The notes under the pieces were generated by a model that was not told the origin of the DNA, did no database searches, and saw only the letters and a list, made by a program, of their open reading frames with translations. Both the position numbers and the translations under genes were made by a program. A stretch of 41,448 bases of DNA from Clostridia bacterium (GTDB lineage: Bacteria > Bacillota > Clostridia > Oscillospirales > CAG-272), in assembly GCA_017504545.1 (NCBI GenBank), contig JAFVRA010000074.1:1-41448 (forward strand), given 5' to 3'. Below, piece by piece: positions 40 through 33,188 of the stretch (position 1 is its first letter; every line of letters begins with the position of its first letter).

Positions 40-1680
40 TTAGTCTTCCTTCTTCTTGAGCACAACTGCGCCAAGAACTACTGCAACTACTACTGCAGAA
101 GCGCCGATGATACCGCCGCATCCACCTTCGTTAGCAGGCTCGGTGGGAGCTGCCGTGGGAGCCTCAGTGGGCTTCTCAGTGGGCTTCTCAGTGGGAGCTG
201 CTGTGGGCTCCTCAGTGGGCTCCTCGGTGGGCTCCTCAGTGGGCTGCTCTTCAACGGGCTTCTCAGGAAGCTCGCCATTGTTGATAACCTTGATAGCCTT
301 CTCAAGAGTGCTTGTTGCACTGTCAAGCTCGCTCTGGAGAGTTGCGTTTGCAAGAACTTCCTGCGCTGCAGCTACTCTCTCTGCGTACTTAGCCCAGTCA
401 TAAGCATTAAAGTCTGCTTCTACGAGAAGAGCTGCGAGCTCGAGCATTTCCTCAAGAGCTGCCTTGTTGAGCTCAACTGTAACGAGAGCATTCTTAGCTG
501 CTACGAGAGCGTCGTAAACAGTCTTGATAGTAGTAACATCGGTTGCGTCAGCATTGTTCTTAGCCTCGTCAAGAGCTGCTGCAAATGCAGTCCATGTATC
601 TGCAGTGTAGTCATCCTTAAGGAGCTTTCTGGATTCCTGAACGAGAGCGTTAAGAGCAGTGGTATCAGCCTTAACAGCCTTAGCAGCGCTCATAAGAGCG
701 GTGAGCTTTCTGTCAGCAACACCCTGTGTGAGTGTTTCATCAGCTACTGCTTCCTTTGCAGCTGCAAGAGCAGTCTGGAGAGCAGCGTAAGAGGTAGCTT
801 CGTAGAGATCAGTCTCAGTAAAGGTAGCCTCTACGTAGATGATGTACTCGTTAAGAGCGGTCTTATCAGCGGGCTTAGCAGCCTCCTGTGTGGGAGTCTT
901 GCAATCGTAAAGAACTGCGTTGTTGATAGTGATGGTTCTCTCACCGCCTACTCCGCCACCTCTGTTGTGTGCACCGAATGCTACGAAAGAGCCTTCGGGA
1001 AGGGTGATGAAGGAGTTGGAACCGCTGTCGTTGGTAAGGTATGCCCAGTCGCCGTCCTTTGCAACGTACTGTACATAAACGTCAAGTCCGTCGTAAATGA
1101 TTCTCCAAGAACCGTAGCCTTCGCCATCAGCGAGGGTAGGAACGGGGAAATGGTCGCCGAAGGTAGAGTTGAAGTTACCACTCCAGCTACCCTTGTAAAG
1201 AACGATGTGGGATGCACGTGTACCGTCTTCGTTGTCATGGTCACCATCGCTTGCAAACGCGCCGCCTGCAAAGTAGTGGTCATTACCGTTAATAGCGAAT
1301 ACAACACCTGCGTAACCGGTATCTCTGTTGAGCTTTGCTCTGAACTAGTATACGTAGTAGGTGTCAGCGGTGATAGCGTACTCAGTCTGAGCAGCATAAC
1401 CAAGGTTGTCAGACTTTTCGGTGCTGGTAGTCGAATTAGCTCTTGTAGAGAAAGTGGTACCGTCGATGGTAACGGTGTACTCTTCATTGAACTTCTTGTT
1501 GCTCTCTGCACCGTCGTAGAGAGACTTGAAGGTCAATTCTTCCCACTTAACGGGAATAGCAAGCGAATCCTCAACTGCATAAACGGGCGATTCTGCCTCT
1601 TCTGCAGCAGCAGGAACTATCGCGAGCACACTTGCAAGCATCATTGCAAGAAGCACGAGAATAGAAACTGTCTTTTTCAT
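40..1680 (-). pseudogene. Secreted surface-protein paralog A (signal peptide, beta-rich module, FIVAR-like helical repeats, PTE linker, Cys-Gly/TM C-terminal anchor) interrupted by one in-frame TAG at 1345-1347
   Basis: One minus-strand frame runs from ATG 1680 (GGAGG 6 nt upstream) to TAA at 40-42. I checked triplets 694-1344 and the only stop is TAG at 1345-1347. The N-terminus MKKTVSILVLLAMMLASVLAIVPAAAEE is a signal peptide like those of the two neighbours. The last ~210 aa (DYT.D.W..F..AL..AK repeats, PTEEPTEKPTE linker, GGCGG-hydrophobic-KKKED) match them. Confidence 0.7.
137..246 (-). repeat. 12-nt periodic coding tandem repeat (P-T-E-x linker) in paralog A
   Basis: Iterated units ggctcggtggg / cagtgggcttct / cagtgggctcct encode PTEEPTEEPTEEPTAAPTEKPTEKPTEAPTAAPTEP. 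Confidence 0.7.
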
Positions 1681-1795
1681 AATTTCCTCCATATTTTCTG
1701 TTTGTTTTTTACATTTTCCACGGAAAATGCATTACAGTACATATATTCTATCACATTACATAAAAAAAAGCAATACCTTTTTTAAAATTTACAAA

Positions 1796-1828
1796 CTAAA
1801 AACTGCCCCGCCTTATTCAAGGCGGGGC
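1796..1828 (-). terminator. Rho-independent terminator of paralog B
   Basis: Minus strand reads GCCCCGCC-ttgaataa-GGCGGGGC followed by a T-run. It lies just downstream of the stop at 1863. The right half of the same hairpin is visible at 1-6 for paralog A. Confidence 0.7.
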
Positions 1829-1862
1829 GATAGCTTTCGCTAATTATTGAATTTCAGACAAA

Positions 1863-4187
1863 TCAGTCTTCCTTCTTCTTGAGCACAACTGCGCCAAGAA
1901 CTACTGCAACTACTACTGCAGAAGCGCCGATGATACCGCCGCATCCGCCTTCATCGTCAGTAGGCTCGGTGGGAGCTGCCGTGGGAGCCTCAGTGGGCTT
2001 CTCAGTGGGCTTCTCAGTGGGAGCTGCTGTGGGCTCCTCAGTGGGCTTCTCAGTGGGCTTCTCCTCTTCGGGAGGAGGAGGAAGCTCGCCACCGTTGATA
2101 GCCTTGATAGCTCTTGCAAGAGCCTTAGCTGCATCTGCGACCTGAGAAACGGTTACGTTATCAGCATCCATTACTGCCTGAGCCTCAGCTACCTTTGCAA
2201 CGTAATCTGCCCAATCGTCAGCCGCATAGTCCTCTTCCTTGAGAACAGCTGCGAGAACGAGAAGGTCTGCAAGCTCGGTCTTGTCAGCGGTAACTACTAC
2301 GAGAGCTGCCTTAGCTGCTACGAGTTCATCGTAGATAGCCTTAACGGTCTCAAAGTTTGTAGACTCGTTAGCCTTTGCCGCGGTGAGAGCTGTGTCAAAT
2401 GCTGCCCAAGAATCTTCGGTGTAGTCAGACTTAGCGAGCTTTCTGCAATCAGAGATGAGAGCATTGAGGTTGGTAAGATCAGCTACGAGGCTGTTGATAG
2501 CGTTTATAAGGGCGGTTGTACGGGATGCAACCTCAGTCTTCGGCTTTACGTCTGCGGAGTAGATCTCCTTAGCTCTGTCGAGAGCTCTTACGAGTCTGCC
2601 CCAAGAGGTCTCTGTGAAGTCCTCAGCGGCATAAGCCTCTGCCTGATCGATGTAGAACTTGAGTCCGTCAAGCTCTTCCTGAGTAGCTTCCTCTACTGCA
2701 GGGGGAATGTACTTGGTGAAATCACCCTTGATGATCTTAGCATCCTTAACGGTGCTGTTTACTGCGAGATAGTAGGAATATACGAAGAAGCCCATATTAC
2801 CTGCTGTGGTAAGCTGTGCCTGCTCTTCGATGAACATCCAAGCGCCGTTAGCGTCAAGAACGTAGCTGGAGATCTTGCCTTCAGGGCCGTTGAATACGAG
2901 AAGCATATCTACGAATCCATCAAGATCCTCTGCAAAAGCTGCAGTAAGAGTATCCCACTTAACGTAGTTGCTGTTGTACTTTGTATCACCGTGAGAGATA
3001 GCGGTACGACGCATAGAAACGTCATCGCCAAACGCGGTATTGTGGTTACCGTAGTTGTTGTAGAACTGAGGACGCTCTGCGGTAAGATCGGTTGCCCAAC
3101 CGCCTACGCCGATGGAGTTGTTCTTCGCATCGTCAGCGCTTGCGGGAGTGCCTTCAGCCTTTACCTTATATCTGAGAGTGTATACATCGGTGAGAGCAGC
3201 AGGAAGACCTGCAACCTCGCTACCCCACATATTAACTGTCTTGTCGGTTCCGTTTGCCTTACCCTTGATGGTAACAGACTTACCATCGTTGCTTACGATG
3301 TACTCCATGTTGCCCTTGCTTGCAGCAAGCTCAGCGGGTGCGAATACGTCGTCGCCCTTGAAGTTGAAGGTATAGAGCACGTCTCCGTCAACTGCGGTTG
3401 CGGGATCCTTAACGAGAGCTGCCTCGTAAAGCTCGAGCTCATAAACCGCGTACTTACCCTTGGATGCACCCTCAACGGTATCAACACCAACGAGGATGTA
3501 GTCAACTGTCATAACGGGGAAATCGCCGCCTGTAACGGCTGCCTTCTGGTCACCCTCGGTAATAACGTTGTACTGAAGGTCGTCGCCGGGTGCCATCTCG
3601 TAAAGGAGTACGGGATCAGCATAGCAATATGTGTTGGCCACATACTTCTTCTCTTCGGTGGAAGCCTTTACTGCCTCGATCTTTGCGGGATCTACAACAG
3701 CACCGTAGATGGTAACTCTTGAGATATCGTCCCTACTGTCAAGACCGCTGGATACCCAGATCTTAAATCCATCAACAGTTACGGATTCCTTGAAGCTATA
3801 GCCGAAGATGTGGTCGTGAGTTACGGAAGTACCGTCAGCAAGGTCCATAGTTGCGCAATCCTGGCCGTACTGGTGGCTCATACCGCCCGAGAACTTAACG
3901 CCGTCGGTTGCACTTGCGGAGCCGCTACCGGAGTTCTGACCACGTCTGAGGGAAGGACCCTTATCAGTTATCGGCCATGTTTCGCCGTTAGCTGCGATGT
4001 AGTAATGATAGTCAAAATAAAATACGTTACCCTTTCCGTCGAACTGATAGTTAGCTGCATCAGCATCAGAAAAGGCTACGTTCTTGCGCTCGGGAGCTGC
4101 AGCTTCTTCAGCCGCTGCGGGAATGATTGCAAGAACGGATGCAAGCATCATAGCGATGAGCACCAGAATAGAAATCGTTCTTTTCAT
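1863..4187 (-). CDS. Secreted surface-protein paralog B (signal peptide, two beta-sandwich-like modules, three FIVAR-like helical repeats, PTE linker, Cys-Gly/TM anchor)
   Basis: ORF 1863..4364 trimmed to ATG 4187, which is preceded by GGAGG. Signal peptide MKRTISILVLIAMMLASVLAIIPAAAEE. Repeated Y/DYTE.SW..F..AL..AK motifs. Ends PTEPTDDEGGCGGIIGASAVVVAVVLGAVVLKKKED. Confidence 0.85.
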   Translation of the reverse strand: MKRTISILVLIAMMLASVLAIIPAAAEEAAAPERKNVAFSDADAANYQFDGKGNVFYFDYHYYIAANGETWPITDKGPSLRRGQNSGSGSASATDGVKFSGGMSHQYGQDCATMDLADGTSVTHDHIFGYSFKESVTVDGFKIWVSSGLDSRDDISRVTIYGAVVDPAKIEAVKASTEEKKYVANTYCYADPVLLYEMAPGDDLQYNVITEGDQKAAVTGGDFPVMTVDYILVGVDTVEGASKGKYAVYELELYEAALVKDPATAVDGDVLYTFNFKGDDVFAPAELAASKGNMEYIVSNDGKSVTIKGKANGTDKTVNMWGSEVAGLPAALTDVYTLRYKVKAEGTPASADDAKNNSIGVGGWATDLTAERPQFYNNYGNHNTAFGDDVSMRRTAISHGDTKYNSNYVKWDTLTAAFAEDLDGFVDMLLVFNGPEGKISSYVLDANGAWMFIEEQAQLTTAGNMGFFVYSYYLAVNSTVKDAKIIKGDFTKYIPPAVEEATQEELDGLKFYIDQAEAYAAEDFTETSWGRLVRALDRAKEIYSADVKPKTEVASRTTALINAINSLVADLTNLNALISDCRKLAKSDYTEDSWAAFDTALTAAKANESTNFETVKAIYDELVAAKAALVVVTADKTELADLLVLAAVLKEEDYAADDWADYVAKVAEAQAVMDADNVTVSQVADAAKALARAIKAINGGELPPPPEEEKPTEKPTEEPTAAPTEKPTEKPTEAPTAAPTEPTDDEGGCGGIIGASAVVVAVVLGAVVLKKKED
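1963..2062 (-). repeat. 12-nt periodic coding tandem repeat (P-T-E-x linker) in paralog B
   Basis: Same cagtgggcttct / ggtgggagctgc units as in A. Encodes EEKPTEKPTEEPTAAPTEKPTEKPTEAPTAAPTEP. Confidence 0.7.
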
Positions 4188-4254
4188 TGTTTTTCCTCCA
4201 AAAAAGTGTGTAAGTTCGGACCGCAAGCGTTGCCTGCGATACCTCCTTGTGTTA

Positions 4255-4283
4255 ATTCTACCACAAAACAAATTCATTTTCAA
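4255..4283 (-). promoter_or_regulatory. SigmaA-type promoter of paralog B
   Basis: Minus strand reads TTGAAA-N17-TAGAAT with a TG-containing extension (tgtggTAGAAT), ~70 nt upstream of ATG 4187. Confidence 0.45.
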
Positions 4284-4349
4284 GACAAAATTACTCTTCG
4301 GATGTAGAAATTCAAGCCTTTCTTTTGTGTATTTTTCACAAAATATATC

Positions 4350-4383
4350 AAAAAATCGCCCCACCTTCGTTTCAAGGTGGGGC
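4350..4383 (-). terminator. Rho-independent terminator of paralog C
   Basis: Minus strand reads GCCCCACCTT-gaaacg-AAGGTGGGGC followed by a T-run, downstream of the stop at 4419. Confidence 0.7.
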
Positions 4384-4418
4384 TATAGCTTTCGCTAATT
4401 ATTCAAATTCAGACTAAA

Positions 4419-6725
4419 TCAGTCTTCCTTCTTCTTGAGCACGACAGCGCCAAGAACTACTGCAACTACTACTGCAGAAGCACCGATGATACCGCCGCAT
4501 CCGCCTTCGTTAGCAGGCTCGGTGGGAGCTGCCGTGGGAGCTTCGGTGGGCTTTTCTGTGGGCTTCTCTGTAGGAGCTGCTGTGGGCTCCTCAGTGGGCT
4601 CCTCGGTGGGATCCTCAACAGGCTTCTTAGGAAGCTCGCCGCCATTGATAGCCTTGATAGCTCTTGTGATATCCTTAACTGCACTTTCAACGTCGGAAGT
4701 CGTTACACCCTCAGCATCAAATACTGCCTTTGCTGCCGCAAGCTTCTCTGTGAAGGTTGCCCAGTCGTCAGCTGCGTAGTCAGCTTCCTCGAGAAGAGCT
4801 GCAAGCTCAAGAAGCTCGCCGAGCTCGCTCTTATCAGCAGGCGCTACTACGAGAGCTGCCTTAGCTGCTACGAGTGCATCATAGAGAGCCTTAACGTCCT
4901 CGTATGCCACAGACTCGTTGTTCTTTGCCGCATTGAGAGCTGCCTCAAAGGTTGCCCAGGAATCAGCGGTATAATCATCCTTGACAAGTCTTCTGCACTC
5001 GGTAACGAGAGTATTGAGTGCAGATGTATCAGCTTCAAGCTTACCAAGGTTATTTATAAGAGCAACCGTGCGTGACTCGACCTCGGTCTTCGGCTTAACG
5101 TCAGCCGTATAGATCTCCTTTGCACGAGTGAGAGCTCTTACGAGACGGCTCCAAGAGGTTGCGGTATAGTTTGCTTCATCGAGAGCCTCTGCCTGATCGA
5201 TATAAAGCTTAAGTGTCTCAAGCTCCTCAGCGGTAGCTTCCTCAATAGCCTCGGGAACATAGGTCGTATAGTCGCCCTTGTAAACTCTTACATTAGTAAT
5301 GGTGGTATTTACCGTGTTGTAGTAAGCGTAGGATGCGAAGCAGATGTTACCTGCCTTTTCAAGCTTTTCAACCTGCTGAATGATCTGCCATACGCCTGCC
5401 TGGTCGAGAACGTAAGCGGTGATCATCTTTGTAGGACCGTCGAATACTACGAGAACGTCCATAAAGCCATCAGCATCTACTGCATACGCATTGAGAGTAT
5501 CCTCCCACATTACGTAATCAGCAAGCTTAGAGCCGTTGCCACCCCAAGAAATTACGGAACGGCGCATATCGATCTTACCGTCAACGTCAGCCGTTGTGTG
5601 GTTACCGTAGTGGTTGTAGAATTCGGGCTTATCGAGTGTAAGATCAACACCCCAACCGCCGATACCTACCGAGTTGTTCTTTGCCTGACCGGAGGTATAT
5701 CCTTCGCTATTAGATCTCGCCTTATATCTGAAGGAGTAGGTTCTGTCAAGGCTTGCAGTAAGTCCTGCAACCTCGCCACCCCAAAGATTGATAGACTGGT
5801 CCTTTGCGCCTTCTTTAGCCTTAATGGTAACTGTCTTACCGTTATCGCTAACGATATATTCCATTTCGTCCGCACTTGCATTAAGCTTTGCAGGAGTAAA
5901 TGCCTCGTCGCCATTGAAATTAAAGGTGTAGAGGAGATCACCCAGAACTGCGCTGTCGTAATCCTTAACGAGAGGAGCCTCGTAAGCCTCGATCTCATAT
6001 ACTCTGTAATCGCCGCTGGTCAGCTCTGTGCCAAAATCAACGCCGATAAGGATGTAGTCGATAGTAATAGCTTCAAAATCAGCAGCTACAACCGCAGCAG
6101 TCTTATCGCCCTCGGTTTCAGTAGTATCCTGAAGATCCTCACCATCTGCCATCTCAAAAAGGAGAGTGGGAGCTGCGTAGCAGTAATTAAGAGCCTTGTA
6201 CTCACCTGCGGTTGCCGCTGCCTCAACCTTTGCGGGATCTACAACAGCGCCGTAAACGGTAACCTTGTTGATAGGTGTCTTCTCAGCGGTAGCGGCCCAG
6301 AGCTTGAAGCCGTCGATAGTTACGGATTCCTTGAAGCTGTAACCGAAAATATGGTTGTGAGTAACGCTTGTTCCGTCGTCAAGCTCAAGAGTAGCACCGT
6401 TAGAGCTGAAATCGTGGTCCATACCGCCGCTGAACTTAACGCCGTCGCTAACGCTTGCAGAGCCGCCGCCGTTGTTATTGCCGTGTCTCATGGATGGGCC
6501 CTTGTCTGTTATCGGCCATGTCTGACCTCTTGCGGCCGTGTAATAGTGATAGTCGAAATAAAATACGTTGCCTTCGCCTGCAAACTGTGTGTCTGCGGCA
6601 GTAGGACTACAATACATTACGTTCTTGCGAGCAGGAGCTGCTTCTTCAGCCGTTGCGGGAAGAATAGCAAGAACAGATGCAAGCATCATTGCGATGAGCA
6701 CCAAAATAGAAATTGTTCTTTTCAT
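4419..6725 (-). CDS. Secreted surface-protein paralog C (colinear with B)
   Basis: ORF 4419..6764 trimmed to ATG 6725 with GGAGG upstream. Signal peptide MKRTISILVLIAMMLASVLAILPATAEE. Colinear with B and roughly two-thirds identical by eye (NVFYFDYHYY, DGTSVTH.HIFGYSFKESVT.DGFK, TVYGAVVDPAK). Same C-terminal GGCGG-TM-KKKED. Confidence 0.85.
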   Translation of the reverse strand: MKRTISILVLIAMMLASVLAILPATAEEAAPARKNVMYCSPTAADTQFAGEGNVFYFDYHYYTAARGQTWPITDKGPSMRHGNNNGGGSASVSDGVKFSGGMDHDFSSNGATLELDDGTSVTHNHIFGYSFKESVTIDGFKLWAATAEKTPINKVTVYGAVVDPAKVEAAATAGEYKALNYCYAAPTLLFEMADGEDLQDTTETEGDKTAAVVAADFEAITIDYILIGVDFGTELTSGDYRVYEIEAYEAPLVKDYDSAVLGDLLYTFNFNGDEAFTPAKLNASADEMEYIVSDNGKTVTIKAKEGAKDQSINLWGGEVAGLTASLDRTYSFRYKARSNSEGYTSGQAKNNSVGIGGWGVDLTLDKPEFYNHYGNHTTADVDGKIDMRRSVISWGGNGSKLADYVMWEDTLNAYAVDADGFMDVLVVFDGPTKMITAYVLDQAGVWQIIQQVEKLEKAGNICFASYAYYNTVNTTITNVRVYKGDYTTYVPEAIEEATAEELETLKLYIDQAEALDEANYTATSWSRLVRALTRAKEIYTADVKPKTEVESRTVALINNLGKLEADTSALNTLVTECRRLVKDDYTADSWATFEAALNAAKNNESVAYEDVKALYDALVAAKAALVVAPADKSELGELLELAALLEEADYAADDWATFTEKLAAAKAVFDAEGVTTSDVESAVKDITRAIKAINGGELPKKPVEDPTEEPTEEPTAAPTEKPTEKPTEAPTAAPTEPANEGGCGGIIGASAVVVAVVLGAVVLKKKED
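4516..4614 (-). repeat. 12-nt periodic coding tandem repeat (P-T-E-x linker) in paralog C
   Basis: ggtgggagc / ggtgggctt / cagtgggctcc units encode PTEEPTEEPTAAPTEKPTEKPTEAPTAAPTEP. Confidence 0.7.
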
Positions 6726-6929: not shown

Positions 6930-8024
6930 TTACTTCTCCTCAATCATATCGAGCACTCGTGCCGCAAGGCTCTCGCAGTATCTGCTCTCTGCTTCGAAAT
7001 CCATGCACTCGCCGTATATCCTCTCAAGCTCAAAGTGCGCCTCTCCCGCCTCCGCGAGTCTCTCGCACGCATACTCCAAAAGCCCGTCGTACAAGCGCCT
7101 GTCTGCGCGGAATTCAGCCCTTGCGACACGCGCCTGTGCAGATGAGTGAGAAAAGCTGAAAAATCTCTTCATATTTATTTTGCTCTCTGCCTCACCTACG
7201 CCGACAACGAAGCAGGTACCGCTCTCCTCGAACAAAACAGCATCGGGTACGTCGGTGCTCACAGGGTCAAACGAGACTCGCACGCGGCAGCCCTTGCGCC
7301 TTGCCTCGTCTATGAGCGCAGATATGAAAAGTCCGCCTGCACAGTAGCAGTCACTCACAGATACCAGCCGCTTTGCCTCTTTCTCGTAAGTGTCAAGGCT
7401 GTATCTGCCCTTCATTCCAACAGAGGAACGAATGCCTACCTCCAAGGAATAGCCACTTCCGTCGGGTATCGACGCCACCGCTCTCGCCGCCGCTCTGCGA
7501 AGCTTATCGCTCTTGACGTATCGGCACATAAGCTCCCTGCTCCGTCTGTCGAGTGCCAAGGCGGCTTCAAGATACCTATAAGCACCGCGGTAGCACTCGC
7601 CCTTTCTCGCGCTCAACTCGGCTATCCTATCCTTTTGCGCAGAAAGTGCACGAGAGTCCCAGAAAAGACCCGTATCCACTATCTCGTCTGTCGCCCCCGC
7701 AAGCTCGGGCTCAAGTATATGCGGAGCGGTGGAATCCACCAGCGCTACCCGACCGTCTATGACTATGCCATCAAGCGATGTATAGTCGGACGAGCAATAA
7801 TAATACTCCACGCGATGTCCGTGTTCACTCGCGTACTCCGCTACCCGTCGCATAAGCGTGCTCTTGCCGCTTCCCGCGCCCCCCTTGATAAGATAGCGCC
7901 GCAAAAGCTTCTCTGGGGAGAATATTTCCCTGTAGAAGCTTTTGAAGCCTTCTCCGCTGTTTGCCGCAGCAAAAAACGCCCTCGTTCTCTCGTTTTTTAT
8001 CCTTACGTGCTCATTCTCATCCAT
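6930..8024 (-). CDS. Uncharacterised P-loop NTPase
   Basis: ORF 6930..8147 trimmed to ATG 8024 (GGAGGG 6 nt upstream). Walker A is LIKGGAGSGKSTLMRRV. No other motif I can name. Confidence 0.7.
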   Translation of the reverse strand: MDENEHVRIKNERTRAFFAAANSGEGFKSFYREIFSPEKLLRRYLIKGGAGSGKSTLMRRVAEYASEHGHRVEYYYCSSDYTSLDGIVIDGRVALVDSTAPHILEPELAGATDEIVDTGLFWDSRALSAQKDRIAELSARKGECYRGAYRYLEAALALDRRSRELMCRYVKSDKLRRAAARAVASIPDGSGYSLEVGIRSSVGMKGRYSLDTYEKEAKRLVSVSDCYCAGGLFISALIDEARRKGCRVRVSFDPVSTDVPDAVLFEESGTCFVVGVGEAESKINMKRFFSFSHSSAQARVARAEFRADRRLYDGLLEYACERLAEAGEAHFELERIYGECMDFEAESRYCESLAARVLDMIEEK

Positions 8025-8156
8025 AGTAACCCTCCTATCGCAAGGCGTACCAGCCTCTGCAATAAGAATATGCATCTGCCACCCGTGTGGTGAAAAAAGT
8101 GATGCGGCAAAGCGCAAAAAAGCACGTGGCAAAGCGCTATGCCGCATATATTCCGA

Positions 8157-13207: not shown

Positions 13208-13427
13208 CCTTATTTTTACAGCGACATTTGTGTCGTACCGCAAAATACGGCATTTTTATCAAAATTTTGACACTATATGTTGTGCCGTTCACGGTTTGTT
13301 AATAGTTTTTTAATAATATATTGTTGTAAATTGTATATAAGTATGGTAGAATATTGTATGGTGTATAATGCTGTGCATTTTACAGTTGTATCTATTCACA
13401 TTACATATACTAATTTCGGAGGTATCT

Positions 13428-15287
13428 ATGCTTAAAAACAGTTCTATGCGCCCTGCATACGCGACTGTCGGCTCGCAGAGCAACGGCAGCAAGGTGTCGG
13501 CAAGCGAGTACGTTTCCTTCGCGGCAGGACAGGTAGAGGACGATTTCAACTCCTTTGGAGACACGTCCGCTAAATCAGGCGCATCAGCTCAAAGGCCCAG
13601 ACAGCAGCAGCAAAGAAGACCGCGCCCCTCTAATACCCCCAGAAGAAAAAGCAACCCTCTTTCCAATCTGGATCCTAAGGTAATCATCATCGGCGTGGCG
13701 GCACTCGTTGCGGTTATCCTGCTTATATGTCTTCTCGTTGCGGTGTTCTCCTCTCCCAATAAGGCTATCGAGAAGGAAGACAACGTTTACAAGGTCTATA
13801 TGACCGCGGACGGCGCAAGCTACGGCATCATTTCAAACGGCAAGAAGGTCGAGCACGTATTTGACGGCGAGATCGAGCTTTATCCCGCTAAGGACTACTC
13901 CTTTGCGTACGTATTCGAGGAAGCCATCACCGACGACGGCAACACCGTTACCAGAATGTACATACTCGACGGCAAGGATCTCGATCTCGTTCAGGCTGAC
14001 GCCGACAAGGTCATCGCGTGGGCAGATTACGAGCCCGGTATCGTCTTCAAGGAAGGCGACGTGGTTCAGTTCTACTCCGAGGATGCGTTTGAGGACATCT
14101 CCAGCGACACCTCCGCGTCTAACTTCATAGTATCGGGCGACGCAAGCACGGTAGTATACACCGAGCTTTCGGGCAGAGACCGCGATACCACCACCGTTAA
14201 ATACTTCCGCAACGCAGGATTTAACGACATCGGCGAGACCGAGGGCCTCATTCCCACGGCTATCTCCAACGACGGTACCTACGTTTACGTTTACGACGAG
14301 ACCAATGCACTCTATTACATCGAGGTCTCCAAGCGCGGAGCAAGCTTCGAGCAGAAGCCCATCGTTGCCTCCACCTCTTACACCTACAGCTCTGTCAACG
14401 CGCTCAACGCTGACGGAACCGAGGTAGTATTCAGCTACGTTCACACCAACGGCAAGCTGGTATCTTGGATCTATCAGGTTGGAGACAATAAGCCCGTAGG
14501 CATCGGCGAGGGCGTATTCAAGTACCTCCCCTCCGACAATAAGACCGTATGTCCCGCTTCTCTCATCGACGCTTACTTTACCGCTGAAAAAACGGTAACC
14601 GATGAAGAGGGCAACACCTCTAAGGTAACCTCCACGTACTTCTATGACGGCAAGAGCGCTCGCAAGCTCGCTGACGAGCTCGGTCAGTTCTCCCCCGACG
14701 GTAAGTACTTCTACTACATAGACAAAGAGACGGCTGATTTCGTAAGAGTTCCTCTCGGAAGCAAGAATTTCGAAGAGGACGCTAAGACCGTAGCAAAGGC
14801 TATCGACTCCTTCGTTCTCACCGAGAAGGGCGACCTCTACACCTACAGCAAGCCTACCTCCTCTACAGGCGGCAAGATAGTCTTCAGAAAAGCTTCTGAC
14901 AGCACGTCTAAGGCTGTATCCTCGAGACCCGACTCCGCTTCTATGTTCCTGTGCGGAAGCACGATCTACTTCTCCGAGACCACAAATGGCGAGATCAAGA
15001 TCTACTCCTCTACCGACGGTGCAACCAAGGAAGAGGTAACGTTTAAGAAGGTACTCTTTGAAACTCCTCTCACCATTGAGATGGGCGCAGGTGAAAAGGG
15101 ATATGCTTACTTCGTTGACTCCAACGGAGACACAAAGCTTCTCTACACCTCCAACGGCAAGACCTTTGATATAGTTCTTGACGCTTGCTTCATTCCCGGA
15201 TACGATTCAGGCTTCACTCCTCCCACTACGGACGAGGACGCGACTGAAGGCGCGACAGACGGCGCAACAGACGGCGAGGCTGAATAA
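13428..15287 (+). CDS. Membrane-anchored hypothetical protein (basic Q/R/P-rich cytoplasmic N-terminus, one TM, large beta-rich extracytoplasmic domain)
   Basis: ORF 13368..15287 trimmed to ATG 13428 (GGAGG 7 nt upstream). TM is VIIIGVAALVAVILLICLLVAVF. Recurrent DG..Y.Y / NG...L.Y strands suggest a propeller-like repeat. The acidic tail is DEDATEGATDGATDGEAE. Confidence 0.75.
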   Translation: MLKNSSMRPAYATVGSQSNGSKVSASEYVSFAAGQVEDDFNSFGDTSAKSGASAQRPRQQQQRRPRPSNTPRRKSNPLSNLDPKVIIIGVAALVAVILLICLLVAVFSSPNKAIEKEDNVYKVYMTADGASYGIISNGKKVEHVFDGEIELYPAKDYSFAYVFEEAITDDGNTVTRMYILDGKDLDLVQADADKVIAWADYEPGIVFKEGDVVQFYSEDAFEDISSDTSASNFIVSGDASTVVYTELSGRDRDTTTVKYFRNAGFNDIGETEGLIPTAISNDGTYVYVYDETNALYYIEVSKRGASFEQKPIVASTSYTYSSVNALNADGTEVVFSYVHTNGKLVSWIYQVGDNKPVGIGEGVFKYLPSDNKTVCPASLIDAYFTAEKTVTDEEGNTSKVTSTYFYDGKSARKLADELGQFSPDGKYFYYIDKETADFVRVPLGSKNFEEDAKTVAKAIDSFVLTEKGDLYTYSKPTSSTGGKIVFRKASDSTSKAVSSRPDSASMFLCGSTIYFSETTNGEIKIYSSTDGATKEEVTFKKVLFETPLTIEMGAGEKGYAYFVDSNGDTKLLYTSNGKTFDIVLDACFIPGYDSGFTPPTTDEDATEGATDGATDGEAE

Positions 15288-18291: not shown

Positions 18292-20364
18292 TTATTCCTT
18301 TTCGCCGTAGTAAAACTCCAAGGTTCCTGCGAGATACGCCTCAACGTCCTCTTCTACCAATACTATAGTGCCGTTGGGAAGAATATAACTGCCGTTGTCT
18401 GTATGAGCAAGTCCCTCGGGAACGCTCTGCAAGGTTCCCATAAACGCACGGCCGCGACACAGCATACAAATAGCGTAGCCGTCAGGACCAACAAAGCCTC
18501 CGGGGGCAACAACGTGAGATGAAGTTACGTACGAATCGCATCTGCAATAAGACTTATGCTTTCCATCCGATTGCCACGTATAGTGATCTGTATATGAATG
18601 ATCGTGTACAACCTTATAAGCAATAGCTCCAAATTCACCCAGATAGCTTTGCGCATCTTCCGCTAAGACAATATCGATTCTAAATGATGAATTGTTTTCA
18701 TTTTGATTAGTGAAAGTCAAATAATCAACGCTTGAATCAACAGTACTCTCCGCAACGTACGTAGATGTTCCTAAATCAAAGATCTTTATTATATAATCAG
18801 TATATTGGGGCTGTGCTGAAGCATTGGGGTTCTGTATTCCTTCAGTAATATTACTGTAATCGCTCACAGAGTTTATAGTTATATTAGCATTTATCATTAT
18901 GGTATCTAAATATGGAATTGTTACTGACTCTTCAAGCACATCCTCCCCTTGACATTCACCATAAATAACAAAATCCGAATGTTCGCCGTTCAGCATACAA
19001 TTTCTCATATTCTGATAATTTATCAATCCAAAACCTGCCTGCTCGTCAAAATAACTTGTCTGAGTAGGAAGCTTTTCGGCGCTCAAGTGTACCAATGACT
19101 TTACTAACTCCGGATTAACTCTAAGACTGGGAAATTCCTCCATCAACAATGCTATTACTCCTGTAACCATAGGTGTAGCTGCACTTGTGCCACCAAAAGT
19201 CCCTTCTATGTTTTCTATGCCGGAAATTTTTCCACCGGGTGCAACAATATCAGGTTTTAATAAGAATTCATTACCTATCTCAACAATTTCCCAATATGAG
19301 CTACTAGATATGTTCTTGTCATAATCTATTGCCCCAACTGTTATAGCATTAAGAGCACAGCCAGGAGAAGTAACACGACTATAGTAATCATATTCACCTT
19401 CAGTTCCTGAAGATTTCACAAATGTGCAACAAGAATTTGAAACTACACTATCAATATAATCATCATATTTTGAGTAATATCCTAAAGGGTCTATCCCACA
19501 ACTCATATTAATAATGTGTACTCCATACGTGTTTATTAGAGTATTGCAAGCTGAAAGTAGACCACTCTCTAAAGGCATACAATATAAATATACATCTTCT
19601 GCTATTCCGGAATTACCACCAATAATAGAAGTTACTTTAGTAGAATGATCCGTTACATTATTTCCCAGAAAAGTATATAACCCTTCTTTTAAATTGACAG
19701 TACTATGCGGACGTCCTTCCTCAATAACACCTACTTTTATTCCGTCTCCGGTAAACTCAGAATCAGCCGCTCCAATATCCTCAATAGCTTCACTAAACGG
19801 ATAGTTAACAGTAGACGTTTCGCTGTTTTGCGTTGCATCATCGGTACCCTGTGTTGTAATAAAGCTACATATAGAGGCAATAATATCTTCATTAGCTTCT
19901 GCTTTACCTACAAGAGAACTCTCATATATCTCATACTCATATACGTCATCGAATATGACCTCAACGTACGGAGCGAAAAAGCTTACGGTGTAATTGCACT
20001 CGTTCAATGACATTTTGTCAACTAACTGTTGGTTATGCTGAAGATAATGTTCTTTTACATTCGCTCTGTGCTGATATAACGCTTCATCAATTTTATCATC
20101 ATCAGCAACAATTCTTGATGCGCTCAGATCAAGCGAAGGATCTTCTCTTGCTTCAACAAGCAAACATATATCGTATTCGTCAGAACTTTCAGCGCTAATT
20201 TCTTGCGCTTCCAGTTTTTTATAGACATCCGATATACTCATTAAATCAATAGAAATTGAAACGCTTTCTTCGGTTGCATCATTAAAAATCGAACCAGTCT
20301 CCTGAAGCGCATAAAAGGGGAAAATACAACATATCGCCAATACTAAACACAAACTCTTAATCAT
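18292..20364 (-). CDS. Secreted S8 subtilase-like protein with non-canonical active-site residues and a Cys-rich C-terminal tail
   Basis: 690 aa. Signal peptide MIKSLCLVLAICCIFPFYA. S8 blocks are GIKVGVIEEG, DHSTKVTSIIGG, IINMSCG, SSGTEG, ITVGAID, DIVAPG and GGTSAATPMVTG. The tail carries C-x-C ... C-x-x-C. Confidence 0.8.
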   Translation of the reverse strand: MIKSLCLVLAICCIFPFYALQETGSIFNDATEESVSISIDLMSISDVYKKLEAQEISAESSDEYDICLLVEAREDPSLDLSASRIVADDDKIDEALYQHRANVKEHYLQHNQQLVDKMSLNECNYTVSFFAPYVEVIFDDVYEYEIYESSLVGKAEANEDIIASICSFITTQGTDDATQNSETSTVNYPFSEAIEDIGAADSEFTGDGIKVGVIEEGRPHSTVNLKEGLYTFLGNNVTDHSTKVTSIIGGNSGIAEDVYLYCMPLESGLLSACNTLINTYGVHIINMSCGIDPLGYYSKYDDYIDSVVSNSCCTFVKSSGTEGEYDYYSRVTSPGCALNAITVGAIDYDKNISSSSYWEIVEIGNEFLLKPDIVAPGGKISGIENIEGTFGGTSAATPMVTGVIALLMEEFPSLRVNPELVKSLVHLSAEKLPTQTSYFDEQAGFGLINYQNMRNCMLNGEHSDFVIYGECQGEDVLEESVTIPYLDTIMINANITINSVSDYSNITEGIQNPNASAQPQYTDYIIKIFDLGTSTYVAESTVDSSVDYLTFTNQNENNSSFRIDIVLAEDAQSYLGEFGAIAYKVVHDHSYTDHYTWQSDGKHKSYCRCDSYVTSSHVVAPGGFVGPDGYAICMLCRGRAFMGTLQSVPEGLAHTDNGSYILPNGTIVLVEEDVEAYLAGTLEFYYGEKE

Positions 20365-20408
20365 CTTTCTTCTCCTTGTTTTTTAATATTTTTAAAATAA
20401 AAATTCAA

Positions 20409-21848
20409 TTACCCCTCGTAAAAACTATAGCTATATATAACCTCTATCCGAGTTACATATTCCAATTCTGCAAAATTCTTGATGACATCATAATCGGCAT
20501 AAAAGTCTGCCAATGCATTTGATAACGGTTCTTCATCCGTGCAATTTTCATCAGCGTGCGAATAAAAGAAGCGTAGATGAGAGATATAATCTCCCAAGCT
20601 AAGGTGTTCATCGGACAGTTCAGAACTGTATTCATTAAAGAAAGCAGTGTTAAGAGTTATAAGTTTGGTGTCCTCACATGCCTTATACCACTCTTCCTCT
20701 GTGGCAAGATCATAATCACAATAAACAAATATTATAATTTTAGCGGGAACCCAGAATTCATCGTTAAGGTTGCTTTTATCACCTTTACTCTCAGCATAAT
20801 GGCGGAATTGACTCCTTTTATAAAAGCCTACTTTGTCTATTGTTTCTTCTTCATTCTCCATAAAATCAAAGAAGTTCTTCAATTCTTCATCCTTAACAAT
20901 AGCGCTTTCAATAACATCTGCAAACCAATCCACTTTAACCATATCAATATAAGATGTGCCATCATCATGCTCGATAGTCTCATAATGATACGAATCTGTT
21001 ACAAGTTGCATGCCGGTATAATAATCTCCGAGTTCCTTATCGTCATAATCTAAAATAAAGCCGTCTGTAAACCTCTTTTGTGATTTTCTCACATAGTAAT
21101 ACTCGCCGTCCAAGTATCTACAAGGAACCGTCACCCACTCGTGATCATACGCCGTGGTGGAGTAATAAACGGCATTTTCCTCGGACGAATTGAGGTAGAT
21201 AAAGGTCTCGTCAAAGGTATCGGCTGCCTTTGTGTTTACGCCCTCGTTAAACTGAGGCTCATAGGGCTGAAAATGCTCCATAGTCGGCACCGCCGCGTCC
21301 TCTGTCATAATGTCCTTGACGAAGAGCGAGGGATTAATTTGAAAGGCTAACGCCATTTGGAGATCTTCGTACTCTTTTGTAATATCGCCGACGTTTGCAT
21401 ATTTGAGCCAAGTGTATTCGCCGCTCTGCTGACCGTCAGCCGAATACGCGCAAACAAAGTAAGGCTTTGAAGGATCAAACGCGACGTGCAGCGCCTGCTG
21501 TCCGTCTCTTATTGCATCCATTTTGTCTGCCGTTGTGATCGCGGGCATATCGTGGTCAACCTCAAGCTCGTTCAAATATTCAACCAAGGCGATAATAAGC
21601 GCATCCTCGGATTTAAGCTCTGTACCGTTATTGACAACAGGCTCTTCAAAGGGCGGAAGTCCCGACCCCGCCGCGAATGCGGTAGTAACGAGCAAGCTCA
21701 GGCACGCTGCTACGACTATCCATTTTATCAAGCCATGCTTATGCGGCTTTCGCAGATTCTTTTTTCCATTTGCACCTTCCGGTGCTGCCGCAAGGACTAC
21801 GTCGGCGTCAATTCCGCCGAGAGCCTCAAAAATATCTTTATTTTTCAT
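20409..21848 (-). CDS. Single-pass membrane protein co-translated with the sigma factor (putative anti-sigma/sensor)
   Basis: 479 aa. ~40-aa cytoplasmic N-terminus (MKNKDIFEALGGIDADVVLAAA), TM LIKWIVVAACLSLLVTTAFAAG, and a large acidic, Tyr-rich ectodomain with no motif I recognise. ATGA overlap with the sigma gene. Confidence 0.6.
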   Translation of the reverse strand: MKNKDIFEALGGIDADVVLAAAPEGANGKKNLRKPHKHGLIKWIVVAACLSLLVTTAFAAGSGLPPFEEPVVNNGTELKSEDALIIALVEYLNELEVDHDMPAITTADKMDAIRDGQQALHVAFDPSKPYFVCAYSADGQQSGEYTWLKYANVGDITKEYEDLQMALAFQINPSLFVKDIMTEDAAVPTMEHFQPYEPQFNEGVNTKAADTFDETFIYLNSSEENAVYYSTTAYDHEWVTVPCRYLDGEYYYVRKSQKRFTDGFILDYDDKELGDYYTGMQLVTDSYHYETIEHDDGTSYIDMVKVDWFADVIESAIVKDEELKNFFDFMENEEETIDKVGFYKRSQFRHYAESKGDKSNLNDEFWVPAKIIIFVYCDYDLATEEEWYKACEDTKLITLNTAFFNEYSSELSDEHLSLGDYISHLRFFYSHADENCTDEEPLSNALADFYADYDVIKNFAELEYVTRIEVIYSYSFYEG

Positions 21849-22399
21849 ACTGTAAACCCTTCCTTCACTAAAAACTCTTTAAGCTTTTCTCGTGTCCGCA
21901 AGAGAAGAACTGCGGCGTTGCTTTCCTTTATCGAAAGCTCGCTCGCGACCTCGGCTATCGTGCATGCGTACCAATAGCGAAGCAAAAACGCCTTCTGCGT
22001 GCGGCTTGGGAGAGAGCGCACGAATCGGTTGAGCGCGTCGCGCAAAAGCAGGCTGTCAACCATTTCCTCTCCCTCTTTTTCGGGAATACACTCTGCAAGC
22101 TCGTCAAGTATAAGTGACACGTTCCCTTCTCTTTTCTGCCTTTTCTGCGCCTTTCTGCGATTCATGGCGATATTTCGGCAGAGCGCGCCGATATAGTGCT
22201 TGAGCGGCTCGGGGCGCTTGGGGGGAATAGTGTTCCAGGCGGCGAGATAGGTGTCGTTCTTTACCTCGAGTGAGTCCTCTTCGTTCTCAAGAATACGGTC
22301 GGCTATGTATTTGCAATAGCGACCGTACTTTTTGTCGGTCTCCTCGATGGCATCCTCAGAGCGTTCCCAAAAGAGATCTAATATTTTACTGTCATCCAT
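21845..22399 (-). CDS. Sigma-70 family (ECF-like) RNA polymerase sigma factor
   Basis: 184 aa. Region 2 is NDTYLAAWNTIPPKRP. Region 4 HTH is AFLLRYWYACTIAEVASELSIKESNAAVLLLRTREKLKEFL. Confidence 0.85.
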   Translation of the reverse strand: MDDSKILDLFWERSEDAIEETDKKYGRYCKYIADRILENEEDSLEVKNDTYLAAWNTIPPKRPEPLKHYIGALCRNIAMNRRKAQKRQKREGNVSLILDELAECIPEKEGEEMVDSLLLRDALNRFVRSLPSRTQKAFLLRYWYACTIAEVASELSIKESNAAVLLLRTREKLKEFLVKEGFTV

Positions 22400-31508: not shown

Positions 31509-33188
31509 TTATTCCTCTCTTTTTCTGCCTGCGAGTGTGCAGCAAGCCGTAGCGCAGAGCGCTACTATTACTACCGTCGTGCCAAGGCTCGACGAGCAGC
31601 CGCTCGTTTCGTTATGCTCGGTCTCGTCGCCGCTCTCCGACTCACTTGCGTCGGGGTCTGTGGCGCTATCGATCTCGGTAGGCTTTTCGGTAGGCTCCTC
31701 AGTAGGCTTTTCAACCGGAGGCTTACGCTTTGCTACGACTGTAAAGTCAAGCGTATCAAGAATGGTAATAACGCCGTTATCAAGCTTGAGCAGGAAGGTT
31801 ATCTGATGCTTTCCTCGCATAAGGTCAAGCAGCTCGGCGTCTATCTTGCAAAGCACGGTGTTCTCTCCACCGATACTTATCTGATCTTCACTCAGCTCGT
31901 CCTCAAGAAGCGCATCCGAAACCCATCTTATATTCTCTCTGTTGCCGTCAAGGTAATATCCTGCCTCAACTACGTTATATTCAAATCCAAACCAACCGCA
32001 GAGCGACACAGAGCCGCCCTCCTCGACCTTCATATCCACGCCGTCGTGTGCTTCTTCGGAGTTAAGATAATCGGTGATCCTTCCGCCGATATATCCTTCG
32101 GTCTTATCGAAAGGAAGGAATGAGATCGGGGGAGCGATAGGTGTTGAAGTGCTTATTTGGATAACGCGATCGGTATCATTGTTGACCACATATCCCTCAA
32201 GCACCTCGCCGTCTATTTCGCATACTGCCTTAAGCATACCGCCAAGACCGTTCTCCACAACCTCGGTTACCTCTAAGAGAGTGCCTGCAGGGATAAGCGC
32301 GTAGTCGCCCTCAAGCGAGCTGTCTGCATAGAGATATTTGCCCGTAGCCGCAACGTAGAGTCCGGGAGTCACCTTTCTTCCGCTGTAATCTATCTTCGAT
32401 ACCTCATCGTCCGTCTTGTAAGGGGGCGTTCCGTAGCCCTCTATGCAGGAGTAATCAAGCGCGTAGCTCTTGAAATGCACACCACCGCCGTTGGAGACCA
32501 TAGTAGAGCCGCCGTTGGTGTTACCTTCAACGGTATATACTCTCTCACCGTCGGAATAAAGCACTATACCGATGTGTCCGATAGCCTTCTCGGGCGACCA
32601 ACGGAAGAAGATAAGGTCGCCGCTCTTAGGCGTATAATTGCCGCCGTTTGCGAGTGATTTTTGGAAATAACCCGTCTCTGTAAGGTTCTGCGCCCACTTG
32701 GGACATCCTACCTCACGCCAGATGTAATCGGGGTCTCCCATGTGATTTCTGCACCAATCGCTGATCTTATTAAGCTCGGTAGAACGCGACTGAAGCAGGC
32801 AGAAGGAAACGAAGGAAGCGCACCAATCGTAGTTGCCCGTGCCGTATCCCGAGCCGAAATCGCCCATATTCCAGTTATACTCGGTGAAATTGTCTCCGCC
32901 GCCAAGCGTACCGCTGATATCGTCAAGCGTGTCGCTTTCCATATAGCCGATCTGAGAAAGCGCTACTGCCAGAAGGTCGGTAACGTTATCTCCCGTAAGC
33001 GGAAGCGAGGTAAGATTTCTATAATACTTCCCTGCTATGTAAGAGTCGGACGCGTAATTTGCGCCCTTTACGTAAGTGATAGTATCTTTCTCCTCATCCT
33101 CTGCGGCAAAGGTAGTAAAACTCAAGCAAGAGATCGCCATAATTGCCACGAGAGCGAGAGAAATTCCTCTCAAAGCGTATTTTTTCAT
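31509..33188 (-). CDS. Secreted CHAP-domain cell-wall hydrolase with PTE linker and Cys/TM C-terminal anchor
   Basis: 559 aa with a signal peptide. CHAP Cys/His blocks are YDWCASFVSFCLLQ and GHIGIVLYSDGERVYTVEGNT. The C-terminus is PVEKPTEEPTEKPTE...NETSGCSSSLGTTVVIVALCATACCTLAGRKREE. Confidence 0.8.
   Translation of the reverse strand: MKKYALRGISLALVAIMAISCLSFTTFAAEDEEKDTITYVKGANYASDSYIAGKYYRNLTSLPLTGDNVTDLLAVALSQIGYMESDTLDDISGTLGGGDNFTEYNWNMGDFGSGYGTGNYDWCASFVSFCLLQSRSTELNKISDWCRNHMGDPDYIWREVGCPKWAQNLTETGYFQKSLANGGNYTPKSGDLIFFRWSPEKAIGHIGIVLYSDGERVYTVEGNTNGGSTMVSNGGGVHFKSYALDYSCIEGYGTPPYKTDDEVSKIDYSGRKVTPGLYVAATGKYLYADSSLEGDYALIPAGTLLEVTEVVENGLGGMLKAVCEIDGEVLEGYVVNNDTDRVIQISTSTPIAPPISFLPFDKTEGYIGGRITDYLNSEEAHDGVDMKVEEGGSVSLCGWFGFEYNVVEAGYYLDGNRENIRWVSDALLEDELSEDQISIGGENTVLCKIDAELLDLMRGKHQITFLLKLDNGVITILDTLDFTVVAKRKPPVEKPTEEPTEKPTEIDSATDPDASESESGDETEHNETSGCSSSLGTTVVIVALCATACCTLAGRKREE

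Follow-up and report, generated by a model that had tools for sequence, protein, structure and literature searches.

A cysteine-bearing C-terminal tail is a probable surface-anchoring signal of uncultured gut Clostridia

Four secreted proteins of one contig end in a common tail

The contig JAFVRA010000074.1 of a Clostridia bacterium (assembly GCA_017504545.1), analysed here over its full length of 41,448 nucleotides and called the window below, encodes four secreted proteins that share a C-terminal ending (Table 1). This ending begins with a linker rich in T, E, and P, continues with a [GS]-C-x-[SG] motif that abuts a hydrophobic segment, and closes with a charged end (KKKED or RKREE) followed by the stop codon. 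We call the part from the motif onwards the tail; its cysteine lies 20–25 residues before the basic cluster. Three of the carriers are paralogs (A, B, and C), and the fourth is a CHAP hydrolase. The tail is probably a new surface-anchoring signal, as judged from the comparisons presented below. An earlier reading of the DNA from its letters alone (the sequence-only reading) had described a common tail on these four proteins, and we find all four tails where it placed them. It had also described a (P-T-E-x)n spacer as part of the signal. A P/T/E-rich linker does precede each tail of the window, but the corresponding region is T/E/A/D/P-rich elsewhere and is not a fixed part of the ending.

Modelled with AlphaFold (mean pLDDT 70), paralog C comprises a signal peptide, two beta-sandwiches, three helical bundles of the FIVAR type, and, after a disordered linker, a terminal helix. 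Foldseek searches matched the sandwiches to folds of the CBM32 and L-type-lectin types, as well as to lectin modules from two adhesins, SraP and Aap. Because of these fold matches, which rest on a predicted structure, the paralogs look like glycan-binding proteins and are probably surface proteins or adhesins. Sequence searches of the PDB with paralog C and with the CHAP protein gave no match. The CHAP protein of the window had no exact counterpart in the protein collection, and the nearest relatives are metagenome proteins of ENA with 95–99% identity. Paralog A is broken at 1345..1347 by an in-frame TAG into a signal-peptide fragment of 115 aa and an open frame of 434 codons, and it is for this reason that the list of open reading frames (ORFs) holds only 40..693 (217 aa) for this gene. 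To judge from the sequence, paralog A is probably a pseudogene (by nonsense mutation) or the product of a sequencing error, and a frameshift is not the cause.

Table 1. Tail-bearing genes of the window, their parts, and other features discussed in the text
Feature	Coordinates	Strand	Details
Paralog A, lectin-like/FIVAR surface protein gene	40..1692	-	550 codons; signal peptide in segment 1345..1692
Paralog A tail	43..126	-	GGCGGIIGASAVVVAVVLGAVVLKKKED; Cys codon 118..120; KKKED 43..57; stop 40..42
Paralog A linker	127..261	-	KPVEEQPTEEPTEEPTEEPTAAPTEKPTEKPTEAPTAAPTEPANE; P/T/E-rich; Pfam PT repeat
Paralog B coding sequence	1863..4187	-	Frame open to 4364; likely start MKRTISILVLIAMM at 4185..4187, as in homologues
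Paralog B tail	1866..1949	-	GGCGGIIGASAVVVAVVLGAVVLKKKED; Cys codon 1941..1943
Paralog B linker	1950..2075	-	Pfam PT repeat
Paralog C coding sequence	4419..6725	-	Frame open to 6764; likely start 6723..6725; conserved MKRTISILVLIAMM signal peptide
Paralog C tail	4422..4505	-	GGCGGIIGASAVVVAVVLGAVVLKKKED; Cys codon 4497..4499
Paralog C linker	4506..4622	-	Pfam PT repeat
CHAP hydrolase, secreted, peptidoglycan amidase/peptidase-type	31509..33188	-	559 aa; PF05257 CHAP, 6.2e-11; unrelated to the paralogs
CHAP protein tail	31512..31604	-	SGCSSSLGTTVVIVALCATACCTLAGRKREE; signature Cys codon 31596..31598
CHAP protein linker	31605..31721	-	PPVEKPTEEPTEKPTEIDSATDPDASESESGDETEHNET; PTE repeats, then acidic/Ser-rich stretch
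STAND/NPHP3-like P-loop NTPase gene	6930..8147	-	Flanked by the spoIIIA operon and the first paralog with a tail
ORF without Pfam match	13368..15287	+	639 aa; between whiA and spoIIIAA
S8 subtilase group	18292..22399	-	S8 subtilase (690 aa), adjoining a 479-aa ORF without significant domain and an ECF-type sigma factor
ORF with helix and KKKA end	39388..40938		Rejected as a tail carrier

The tails of the paralogs and of the CHAP protein belong together

The last ~200 nucleotides of A, B, and C, which comprise the linker and the tail, are almost identical in DNA (40..340, 1863..2163, 4419..4719). The window therefore provides two independent observations of the tail, the paralog family and the CHAP protein, and not four. 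The sequence-only reading was right that all four proteins carry it and overstated their independence, given that three of them are recent paralogs with homogenised 3′ ends. B-type homologues (P0004–P0006) are only ~61–62% identical in protein sequence to paralog C. These sequences point to concerted evolution, in which the 3′ linker-plus-tail module would have been homogenised among the paralogs. In a syntenic relative (locus L080, 10001..21336), the stretch from the spoIIIA operon to ribF contains five paralogs with the tail, and from this we conclude that the window starts inside such an array.

The resemblance between the two kinds of tail was evaluated with cross-validated hidden Markov models (HMMs). 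A model made from the tails of other carriers only gives the CHAP tail 24.7 bits, a model made from CHAP-family tails only gives the paralog tails 39.6 bits, and a model made without the paralog tails of the window gives a paralog tail 46.2 bits. As controls, 300 shuffles per tail score at most 10.3 bits, and the true C-termini of non-carriers in 0.9 Mb of related DNA score ~10 bits or less. On these scores the likeness of the CHAP tail to the paralog tails is not due to chance, and the two types of tail belong together.

The carriers have ordinary N-terminal Sec signal peptides. Among otherwise distant carriers of the FIVAR family, this N-terminal signal peptide is itself unusually conserved (MK[KR].IS[IL]L[VI]..AM[LM]LASVLA[IM][IL]PA), beyond most of the mature protein. 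It is seen in paralogs B (whose likely N-terminus reads MKRTISIL) and C, in P0001–P0034, P0042, P0044, P0046, P0052, P0056, and P0061, and in others.

The cysteine is conserved in homologues that were not chosen by their tail

The fairer test set for the conservation of the cysteine is made of 120 homologues of the CHAP protein (36–95% identity) that were retrieved with the full-length protein, of which the tail represents only ~30 of 559 residues. A C-terminal helix with a basic end is present in 102 of them. All but two of these tailed homologues (100/102) have a cysteine 19–26 residues before the basic cluster, against 0.17 expected from the 1.5% cysteine content of the passenger regions. 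The positions that flank the cysteine are also constrained: residue −1 is Gly (83) or Ser (13), residue +2 is Ser, Ala, or Gly (97), and residue +3 is Ser, Thr, or Ala (84). Meanwhile, the sequence of the helix diverges freely and the cysteine stays in place. The FIVAR family gives a similar picture, the cysteine being kept in 29 of 31 tails (0.06 expected by chance).

The remaining 18 CHAP homologues have no tail, and some of them carry precomputed dockerin, SLH, Big_3, or fn3 domains instead. The dockerin and SLH domains of these proteins indicate that the tail occupies the slot of known surface-anchoring modules.

Some variants of the tail have further features around the cysteine. Several CHAP homologues (P0220, P0221, P0224) have a G-C-N-A-T subtype of the motif, which places an N-x-T sequon right after the cysteine (P0223 has GCSAT). 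This subtype is found at L052 9776..12172 and 13331..14812, and L052 holds three tail-bearing genes within 8 kb. The CHAP tail of the window has three extra cysteines inside the helix (ALCATACCTLAG), and one subfamily of tails (L025, L027, L030, L031, L047; ending ...LGTCTAFVAKKKED) has a second conserved cysteine at the helix's cytoplasmic end.

The tail occurs on many unrelated proteins of gut Clostridia

The sequence-only reading had proposed that carriers be counted with an HMM of the tail. We built a profile of 37 positions from 16 tails and searched it against 1.84 billion cluster representatives, which resulted in 596 protein clusters at E≤1e-3, 15 of them at E≤1e-10. The match is at the extreme C-terminus in 142 of the 147 newly listed proteins, the five exceptions being internal Cys-rich repeats. 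Among the matches listed, Gly precedes the cysteine in 152/156 and follows it in 138/156, and is succeeded by [SG], x, [IV], and [AG]; the distance from the cysteine to the basic cluster is 20–23 residues in all but four (mode 21); and the proteins end most often in KKKED (63), KKKD (31), or KKRD (20). The consensus is a T/E/A/D/P-rich stalk, the motif [KE][KG]-G-C-[G/x]-[SGA]-[STA], a hydrophobic segment that follows without a spacer, KKK or KKR with one or two acidic residues, and the stop codon. In canonical tails, the segment between the cysteine and the basic cluster has 0.4% charged residues and 0.4% Pro, and in the canonical subfamily a pattern of small residues is strongly conserved inside the helix (S+7, A+8, and later G..GTA). 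Distant homologues of paralog C are 38–40% identical to it over the N-terminal third only, yet end in ...KKGCGS[SA]VA.SALAIV...GTALVIKK[KR]D.

The passengers of the tail are diverse. By the similarity of their passengers, the 69 full-length carriers form 19 groups. Pfam identifies FIVAR in 25 of 59 carriers, and also Flg_new, GDPD, BspA-type leucine-rich repeats (LRR), Cthe_2159, Metallophos, LTD, Big_3, and Glug; a GH25 lysozyme at L002 ends in ...SGCRSSIGVGATLIALAGISGAAVVIKRKKED. In their sources, the carriers are named "hypothetical", "FIVAR domain-containing", "CHAP domain-containing", and once "tetratricopeptide (TPR) repeat protein". They are often clustered, with eight at L047, four at L030, four to five at L029, three at L052, and five at L080, and there are up to 6–8 per metagenome-assembled genome (MAG) in what are partial data.

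To delimit the hosts, we scanned genomes and metagenomes. The diverse alignment of tails (A2) was too variable for locus scanning and a narrower one (A3) was used, so these scans cover the canonical KKGCGSS...KKKED subtype only and understate the spread of the tail. Among one genome per GTDB species, they identified 43 loci; in all, the tail was seen in 32 different MAGs. All 43 loci are in MAGs of uncultured gut bacteria that bear the label Clostridia, Eubacteriales, Oscillospiraceae, "Anaerotruncus sp.", or (one) Lachnospiraceae, with the guts of goats, deer, yaks, sheep, and humans among their sources. A further 27 loci, including ones from human gut, came from the metagenome scan. The scan of viral contigs gave no relatives, so the tail is not a phage feature, despite its lysin-like passengers. 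One of the MAG loci with a Gly-Cys tail (L034) also encodes, at 181..1929, a protein with an LPXTG-like ending, GPATGDSF followed by a helix and KRREN. This is a separate signal from the Gly-Cys tail, and it suggests that sortase-type signals may coexist with it.

The sequence-only reading had named confinement of the motif to a few paralogs as the outcome that would tell against a sorting signal. What we found is a tail on 596 clusters, on unrelated passengers, and in 32 MAGs, with a near-invariant cysteine. These four observations together favour the undescribed sorting or anchoring signal of Firmicutes that this reading had suggested over the mere transmembrane (TM) anchor that it had put beside it.

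The tail matches none of the catalogued C-terminal signals

We compared 13 tails with NCBIfam release 20 and ten of these with Pfam as well, at E≤10; no model of either collection reaches its curated cut-off on these tails. The statement of the sequence-only reading that the tail corresponds to no known sorting signal thus stands for the curated C-terminal models, as does its statement that the window tails contain no LPXTG. The best scores are 19.7 bits for Rumino_NPXTG (NF033846; cut-off 23.5), 14.8 for LPXTG (TIGR01167; cut-off 15.9), 15.9 for PF00746 (cut-off 20), and 12.8 for the MYXO-CTERM model "GC_trans_RRR" (TIGR03382; cut-off 15.85), the latter on one of the 13 tails only. These subthreshold matches span the helix and the basic part of the models alone; those to the sortase-signal models lie at positions 5–30, and the motif is not covered. 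PEF-CTERM, Loki-CTERM, and Heimdall-CTERM give weak subthreshold matches over the helix, and the models of GlyGly-CTERM, Synerg-CTERM, JDVT-CTERM, CGP-CTERM, PEP-CTERM, and PGF-CTERM have no match to the 13 tails at E≤10. A literature search found no description of a Gly-Cys C-terminal signal in Firmicutes, and the survey of cysteine signals by Haft (2023) makes no mention of Firmicutes, Clostridia, or Bacillota.

The closest parallels are the Cys-bearing tripartite signals MYXO-, JDVT-, Synerg-, and CGP-CTERM, which are paired with CPBP proteases. Their cleavage by CPBP/Rce1-like "myxosortases" after modification of the cysteine has been predicted, and MrtX has been found by experiment, with expression in E. 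coli, to cut MYXO-CTERM in a Cys-dependent manner (PMC11980579). MYXO-CTERM (TIGR03901/TIGR03382) has, like the tail, an extreme-C-terminal Gly-Cys with an invariant cysteine, a near-chargeless and Pro-poor TM helix, and a basic cluster, and it is present on many unrelated surface proteins per genome. Its enzyme is encoded away from its substrates, and no cognate protease gene was found adjoining the carriers of the tail either. In contrast, MYXO-CTERM is restricted to the diderm Myxococcota, depends on type II secretion (T2SS) to reach the outer membrane, ends in an Arg-rich cluster, and often has a GCGC doublet, whereas the tail is found in monoderm gut Clostridia, ends in a Lys-rich cluster with Glu or Asp before the stop, and usually has a single cysteine followed by Gly-Ser. 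Synerg-CTERM (TIGR04564; MrtS), JDVT-CTERM (MrtJ), and CGP-CTERM (TIGR04288; MrtA) share with the tail a single invariant cysteine, a small-residue motif, the lack of a spacer, and a lineage-restricted distribution, and CGP-CTERM is also preceded by a Thr/Ser-rich stretch. Their motifs differ from that of the tail, being a Ser/Gly cluster that ends in Cys, with an invariant Pro in the helix, in Synergistota; a DP motif in various diderms; and Cys-Gly-Pro in Thermococcales, respectively.

Three other types of signal are more distant. The LPXTG/NPXTG signals occur in the same phylum and share the stalk, the succession of motif and helix, and a K/R-rich end followed by acidic residues, but the tail has a cysteine in the place of their motif, has no spacer before the helix, and stays below their cut-offs. 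GlyGly-CTERM, the rhombosortase signal, is present on many unrelated secreted enzymes as a Gly/Ser-rich motif with an abutting TM helix and basic cluster; it differs from the tail in having no invariant cysteine, in its Gram-negative hosts, and in its need for the T2SS. The lipobox processed by Lgt and Lsp has, like the tail, a Gly-preceded cysteine at the outer-leaflet end of a helix near a K-rich segment, where lipidation of the thiol is chemically plausible. The orientation is mirrored, in that the lipobox cysteine follows an N-terminal helix and the cysteine of the tail precedes a C-terminal one. Positions −3 and −2 of the tail are K, E, or G instead of L-[AS], outside the lipobox pattern [LVI][ASTVI][GAS]C, and the tail would need to be cleaved C-terminal to the cysteine, which Lsp does not do. 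We found no lipobox cysteine in the N-terminal signal peptides of the carriers.

The tail has the layout by which Haft defines tripartite sorting signals in general (C-terminal position, motif, helix, and basic end), and it is found, as in that definition, on many unrelated passengers with several per genome. The definition also includes a cognate endopeptidase that co-occurs with the signal and cuts it; next to the carriers, no gene for one was found. The absence of a spacer is, according to the same author, typical of signals cut by membrane-embedded enzymes, unlike LPXTG. With its near-invariant cysteine and no spacer between motif and helix, the tail fits the class of cysteine signals over that of the sortase signals. 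It is best filed as an orphan signal, the first candidate for a Cys-bearing tripartite C-terminal sorting signal in monoderm Bacillota.

Other genes of the window

Outside these genes, the window is ordinary chromosomal DNA from a spore-forming bacterium of the Clostridium class, with the spoIIIA operon, whiA, murB, prfA, a topoisomerase subunit, an S8 protease and an ECF sigma factor, and oxaloacetate decarboxylase genes. The ORF with a helix and a KKKA end was considered as a further carrier and rejected, as it encodes a polytopic Na+/H+ antiporter. At the position of the STAND/NPHP3-like NTPase, the syntenic relatives have ORFs of similar size (L001 8649..9746, with no label, and L080 8736..9842, with a weak NPHP3_N label). 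The slot between whiA and spoIIIAA is likewise occupied by unlabelled ORFs in these relatives (L001 1316..3286, 656 aa; L080 1502..3346, 614 aa). The S8 subtilase, the 479-aa ORF, and the ECF-type sigma factor may form a regulated secreted-protease module, with no evident tie to the tails.

Interpretation of the tail

In our judgement the tail is a real and apparently uncatalogued, Cys-bearing anchoring or sorting signal of monoderm gut Clostridia. That it is a genuine conserved anchoring or sorting module in which the cysteine is functionally required seems to us very probable from the comparative data. For the reading of the tails as a modular tripartite surface-anchoring or sorting signal of uncultured gut Clostridia (Oscillospiraceae-like, monoderm, and spore-forming), including the processing that is outlined next and as set against the competing explanations considered below, we give a probability of about one half. 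By analogy with the Cys-bearing CTERM signals, the terminal helix would hold the protein in the membrane after Sec export with its KKKED end in the cytoplasm, which would place the cysteine at the outer face of the membrane. There it would be modified, most likely by lipidation, and an unlinked housekeeping intramembrane protease (a CPBP/Rce1-like enzyme would be the first candidate, a rhomboid the second) would remove the helix and the charged end. The mature protein would stay tethered to the surface by its C-terminus, with the PT-rich (T/E/P-rich) stalk spanning the wall. For this full sequence of cysteine modification, helix removal, and C-terminal tethering, which draws on the same analogy, we see the arguments for and against as evenly balanced.

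Several points weigh against processing. Cleavage and modification of the cysteine rest wholly on analogy, and the known systems with cysteine signals belong to diderms or archaea, those of diderms feeding a T2SS, for which there is no counterpart in these Clostridia. Instead of being Arg-rich, the charged end is rich in Lys and closes with acidic residues, as in the LPXTG tails of Firmicutes. Four homologues (P0014, P0016, P0246, P0259) have a plain TM tail without the cysteine, which indicates that a bare anchor can substitute for the signal. The conservation figures of the top 150 profile matches are partly circular, because the profile itself selected them. Finally, no processing enzyme was found. 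In the window we found no sortase, exosortase, rhomboid, or CPBP gene, in agreement with the sequence-only reading. Around 81 HMM-called carriers, in 80 sequences (the window and 79 loci; 0.91 Mb), there was no CPBP, rhomboid, sortase, or exosortase among the multi-TM neighbours; this screen was restricted to ORFs with at least four predicted TM helices and to motif regular expressions, so that an enzyme may have been missed. The regular expressions for CPBP and sortase motifs were applied to the first 48 sequences and Pfam to 34 multi-TM neighbours, together with precomputed Pfam labels for L001–L003, L049, L050, and L052. The neighbours include ZIP, HlyIII, TauE, ECF-S, prepilin peptidase, CDF, MatE, and YidC proteins, a single MBOAT, and a single Acyl_transf_3, and all-versus-all clustering of 503 neighbour ORFs revealed no recurrent membrane enzyme. 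Haft notes that housekeeping sorting enzymes that serve many substrates are not encoded beside them, which is the rule for MYXO-CTERM. Since such many-to-one enzymes are unlinked to their substrates, the empty neighbourhoods neither support nor refute processing, and they may be compatible with an unlinked housekeeping enzyme.

The same empty neighbourhoods, in the window and in the 0.91 Mb around the carriers, would also be expected of a plain type-I membrane anchor that is retained in the mature protein. The helix and KKKED would then be kept, and the juxtamembrane Gly-Cys would have another role, such as disulfide dimerisation, contact with a metal or cofactor, S-acylation without cleavage, or the packing of helices through small residues. 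The Cys-less TM and basic tails at the same position in the four homologues named above are in line with this, as are the further cysteines that some subfamilies have in the helix or at its inner end, and the small-residue pattern of the helix is as expected for helix–helix packing. However, simple anchors normally conserve hydrophobicity alone, and here the cysteine, its flanks, and its spacing persist in the tailed CHAP homologues. A motif that abuts the TM segment, a basic end, the C-terminal position, and many passengers with many copies per genome are the properties that define processed sorting signals. Strict anaerobes of the gut, moreover, are unlikely to rely on extracellular disulfides as a principle of design. 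A retained anchor is the main competing explanation, though we regard it as rather unlikely.

Two explanations keep the processing but assign it to other enzymes. In the first, a protease of the rhomboid type (rhombosortase-like), or another intramembrane protease, would cut the tail as a Gly/Ser-rich signal, and the cysteine would not be lipidated; it would simply be the preferred small residue at the cleavage site, the product being released or re-attached otherwise. Rhomboids are common in Firmicutes, which speaks for this explanation, and the motif abuts the helix without a spacer. Its small residues (GGCGG, SGCSSS, KGCGSS) also recall the Gly/Ser-rich motif of GlyGly-CTERM (PMC6219818). 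Yet the GlyGly-CTERM model itself does not match the tails, no rhomboid gene was found near the carriers, and mere smallness would not keep a cysteine in 100/102 and 29/31 tails, since Gly, Ser, or Ala would do equally well; we consider this explanation improbable. More improbable still is a divergent sortase signal, in which a sortase would read the G-C-G-S region in the place of LPXTG/NPXTG and link the protein to peptidoglycan. It could account for the subthreshold matches of the helix and of KKKED or RKREE to NF033846, TIGR01167, and PF00746, and the LPXTG-like ending at L034 suggests that a sortase pathway may be present in these bacteria. Those matches omit the motif, though, and the tail lacks both a Pro-x-Thr-Gly element and the spacer that separates motif and helix in LPXTG signals; no sortase gene was found adjoining any carrier. 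A spurious resemblance, produced by recent paralogy or by a chance likeness of low-complexity hydrophobic tails, would suit the near-identical DNA of the paralog tails, to which much of the likeness within the window is due, but is refuted by the cross-validated HMM scores (24.7–46.2 bits versus at most 10.3 for shuffles), the 596 matching clusters with their C-terminal matches, the conservation of the cysteine in CHAP homologues, and the presence of the tail on GH25, CHAP, LRR, GDPD, and other passengers.

If the tail is a processed anchoring signal, it would bring the C-terminal sorting systems with a cysteine to five and would be the first of them in monoderm Firmicutes. The logic of diderms, in which lipidation is followed by T2SS transfer to the outer membrane, is inapplicable in monoderms, and the anchor would thus involve new biochemistry. 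We suggest tentatively, by analogy and at somewhat less than even odds, that monoderm bacteria (Bacillota) would here have their first C-terminal sorting pathway that depends on a cysteine, in which a pair of membrane enzymes would modify the invariant cysteine and cut the helix. Operating in parallel to sortase and with no outer membrane or T2SS, it might yield products tethered by their C-terminus to lipid or wall, among them hundreds of adhesins and wall hydrolases of uncultured gut Oscillospirales. Lectin-like adhesins, LRR proteins of the BspA type, and wall hydrolases with CHAP or GH25 domains are among the carriers, and, if the tail is processed, the surface proteome of abundant uncultured Clostridia of gut and rumen could be predicted by a simple rule on the sequence. 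The HMM of the tail would re-annotate hundreds of proteins that are now "hypothetical" or "FIVAR domain-containing". As an orphan signal, the tail could be used in partial phylogenetic profiling, which may assign a function to a CPBP or rhomboid paralog, of which Firmicutes have many that are uncharacterised.

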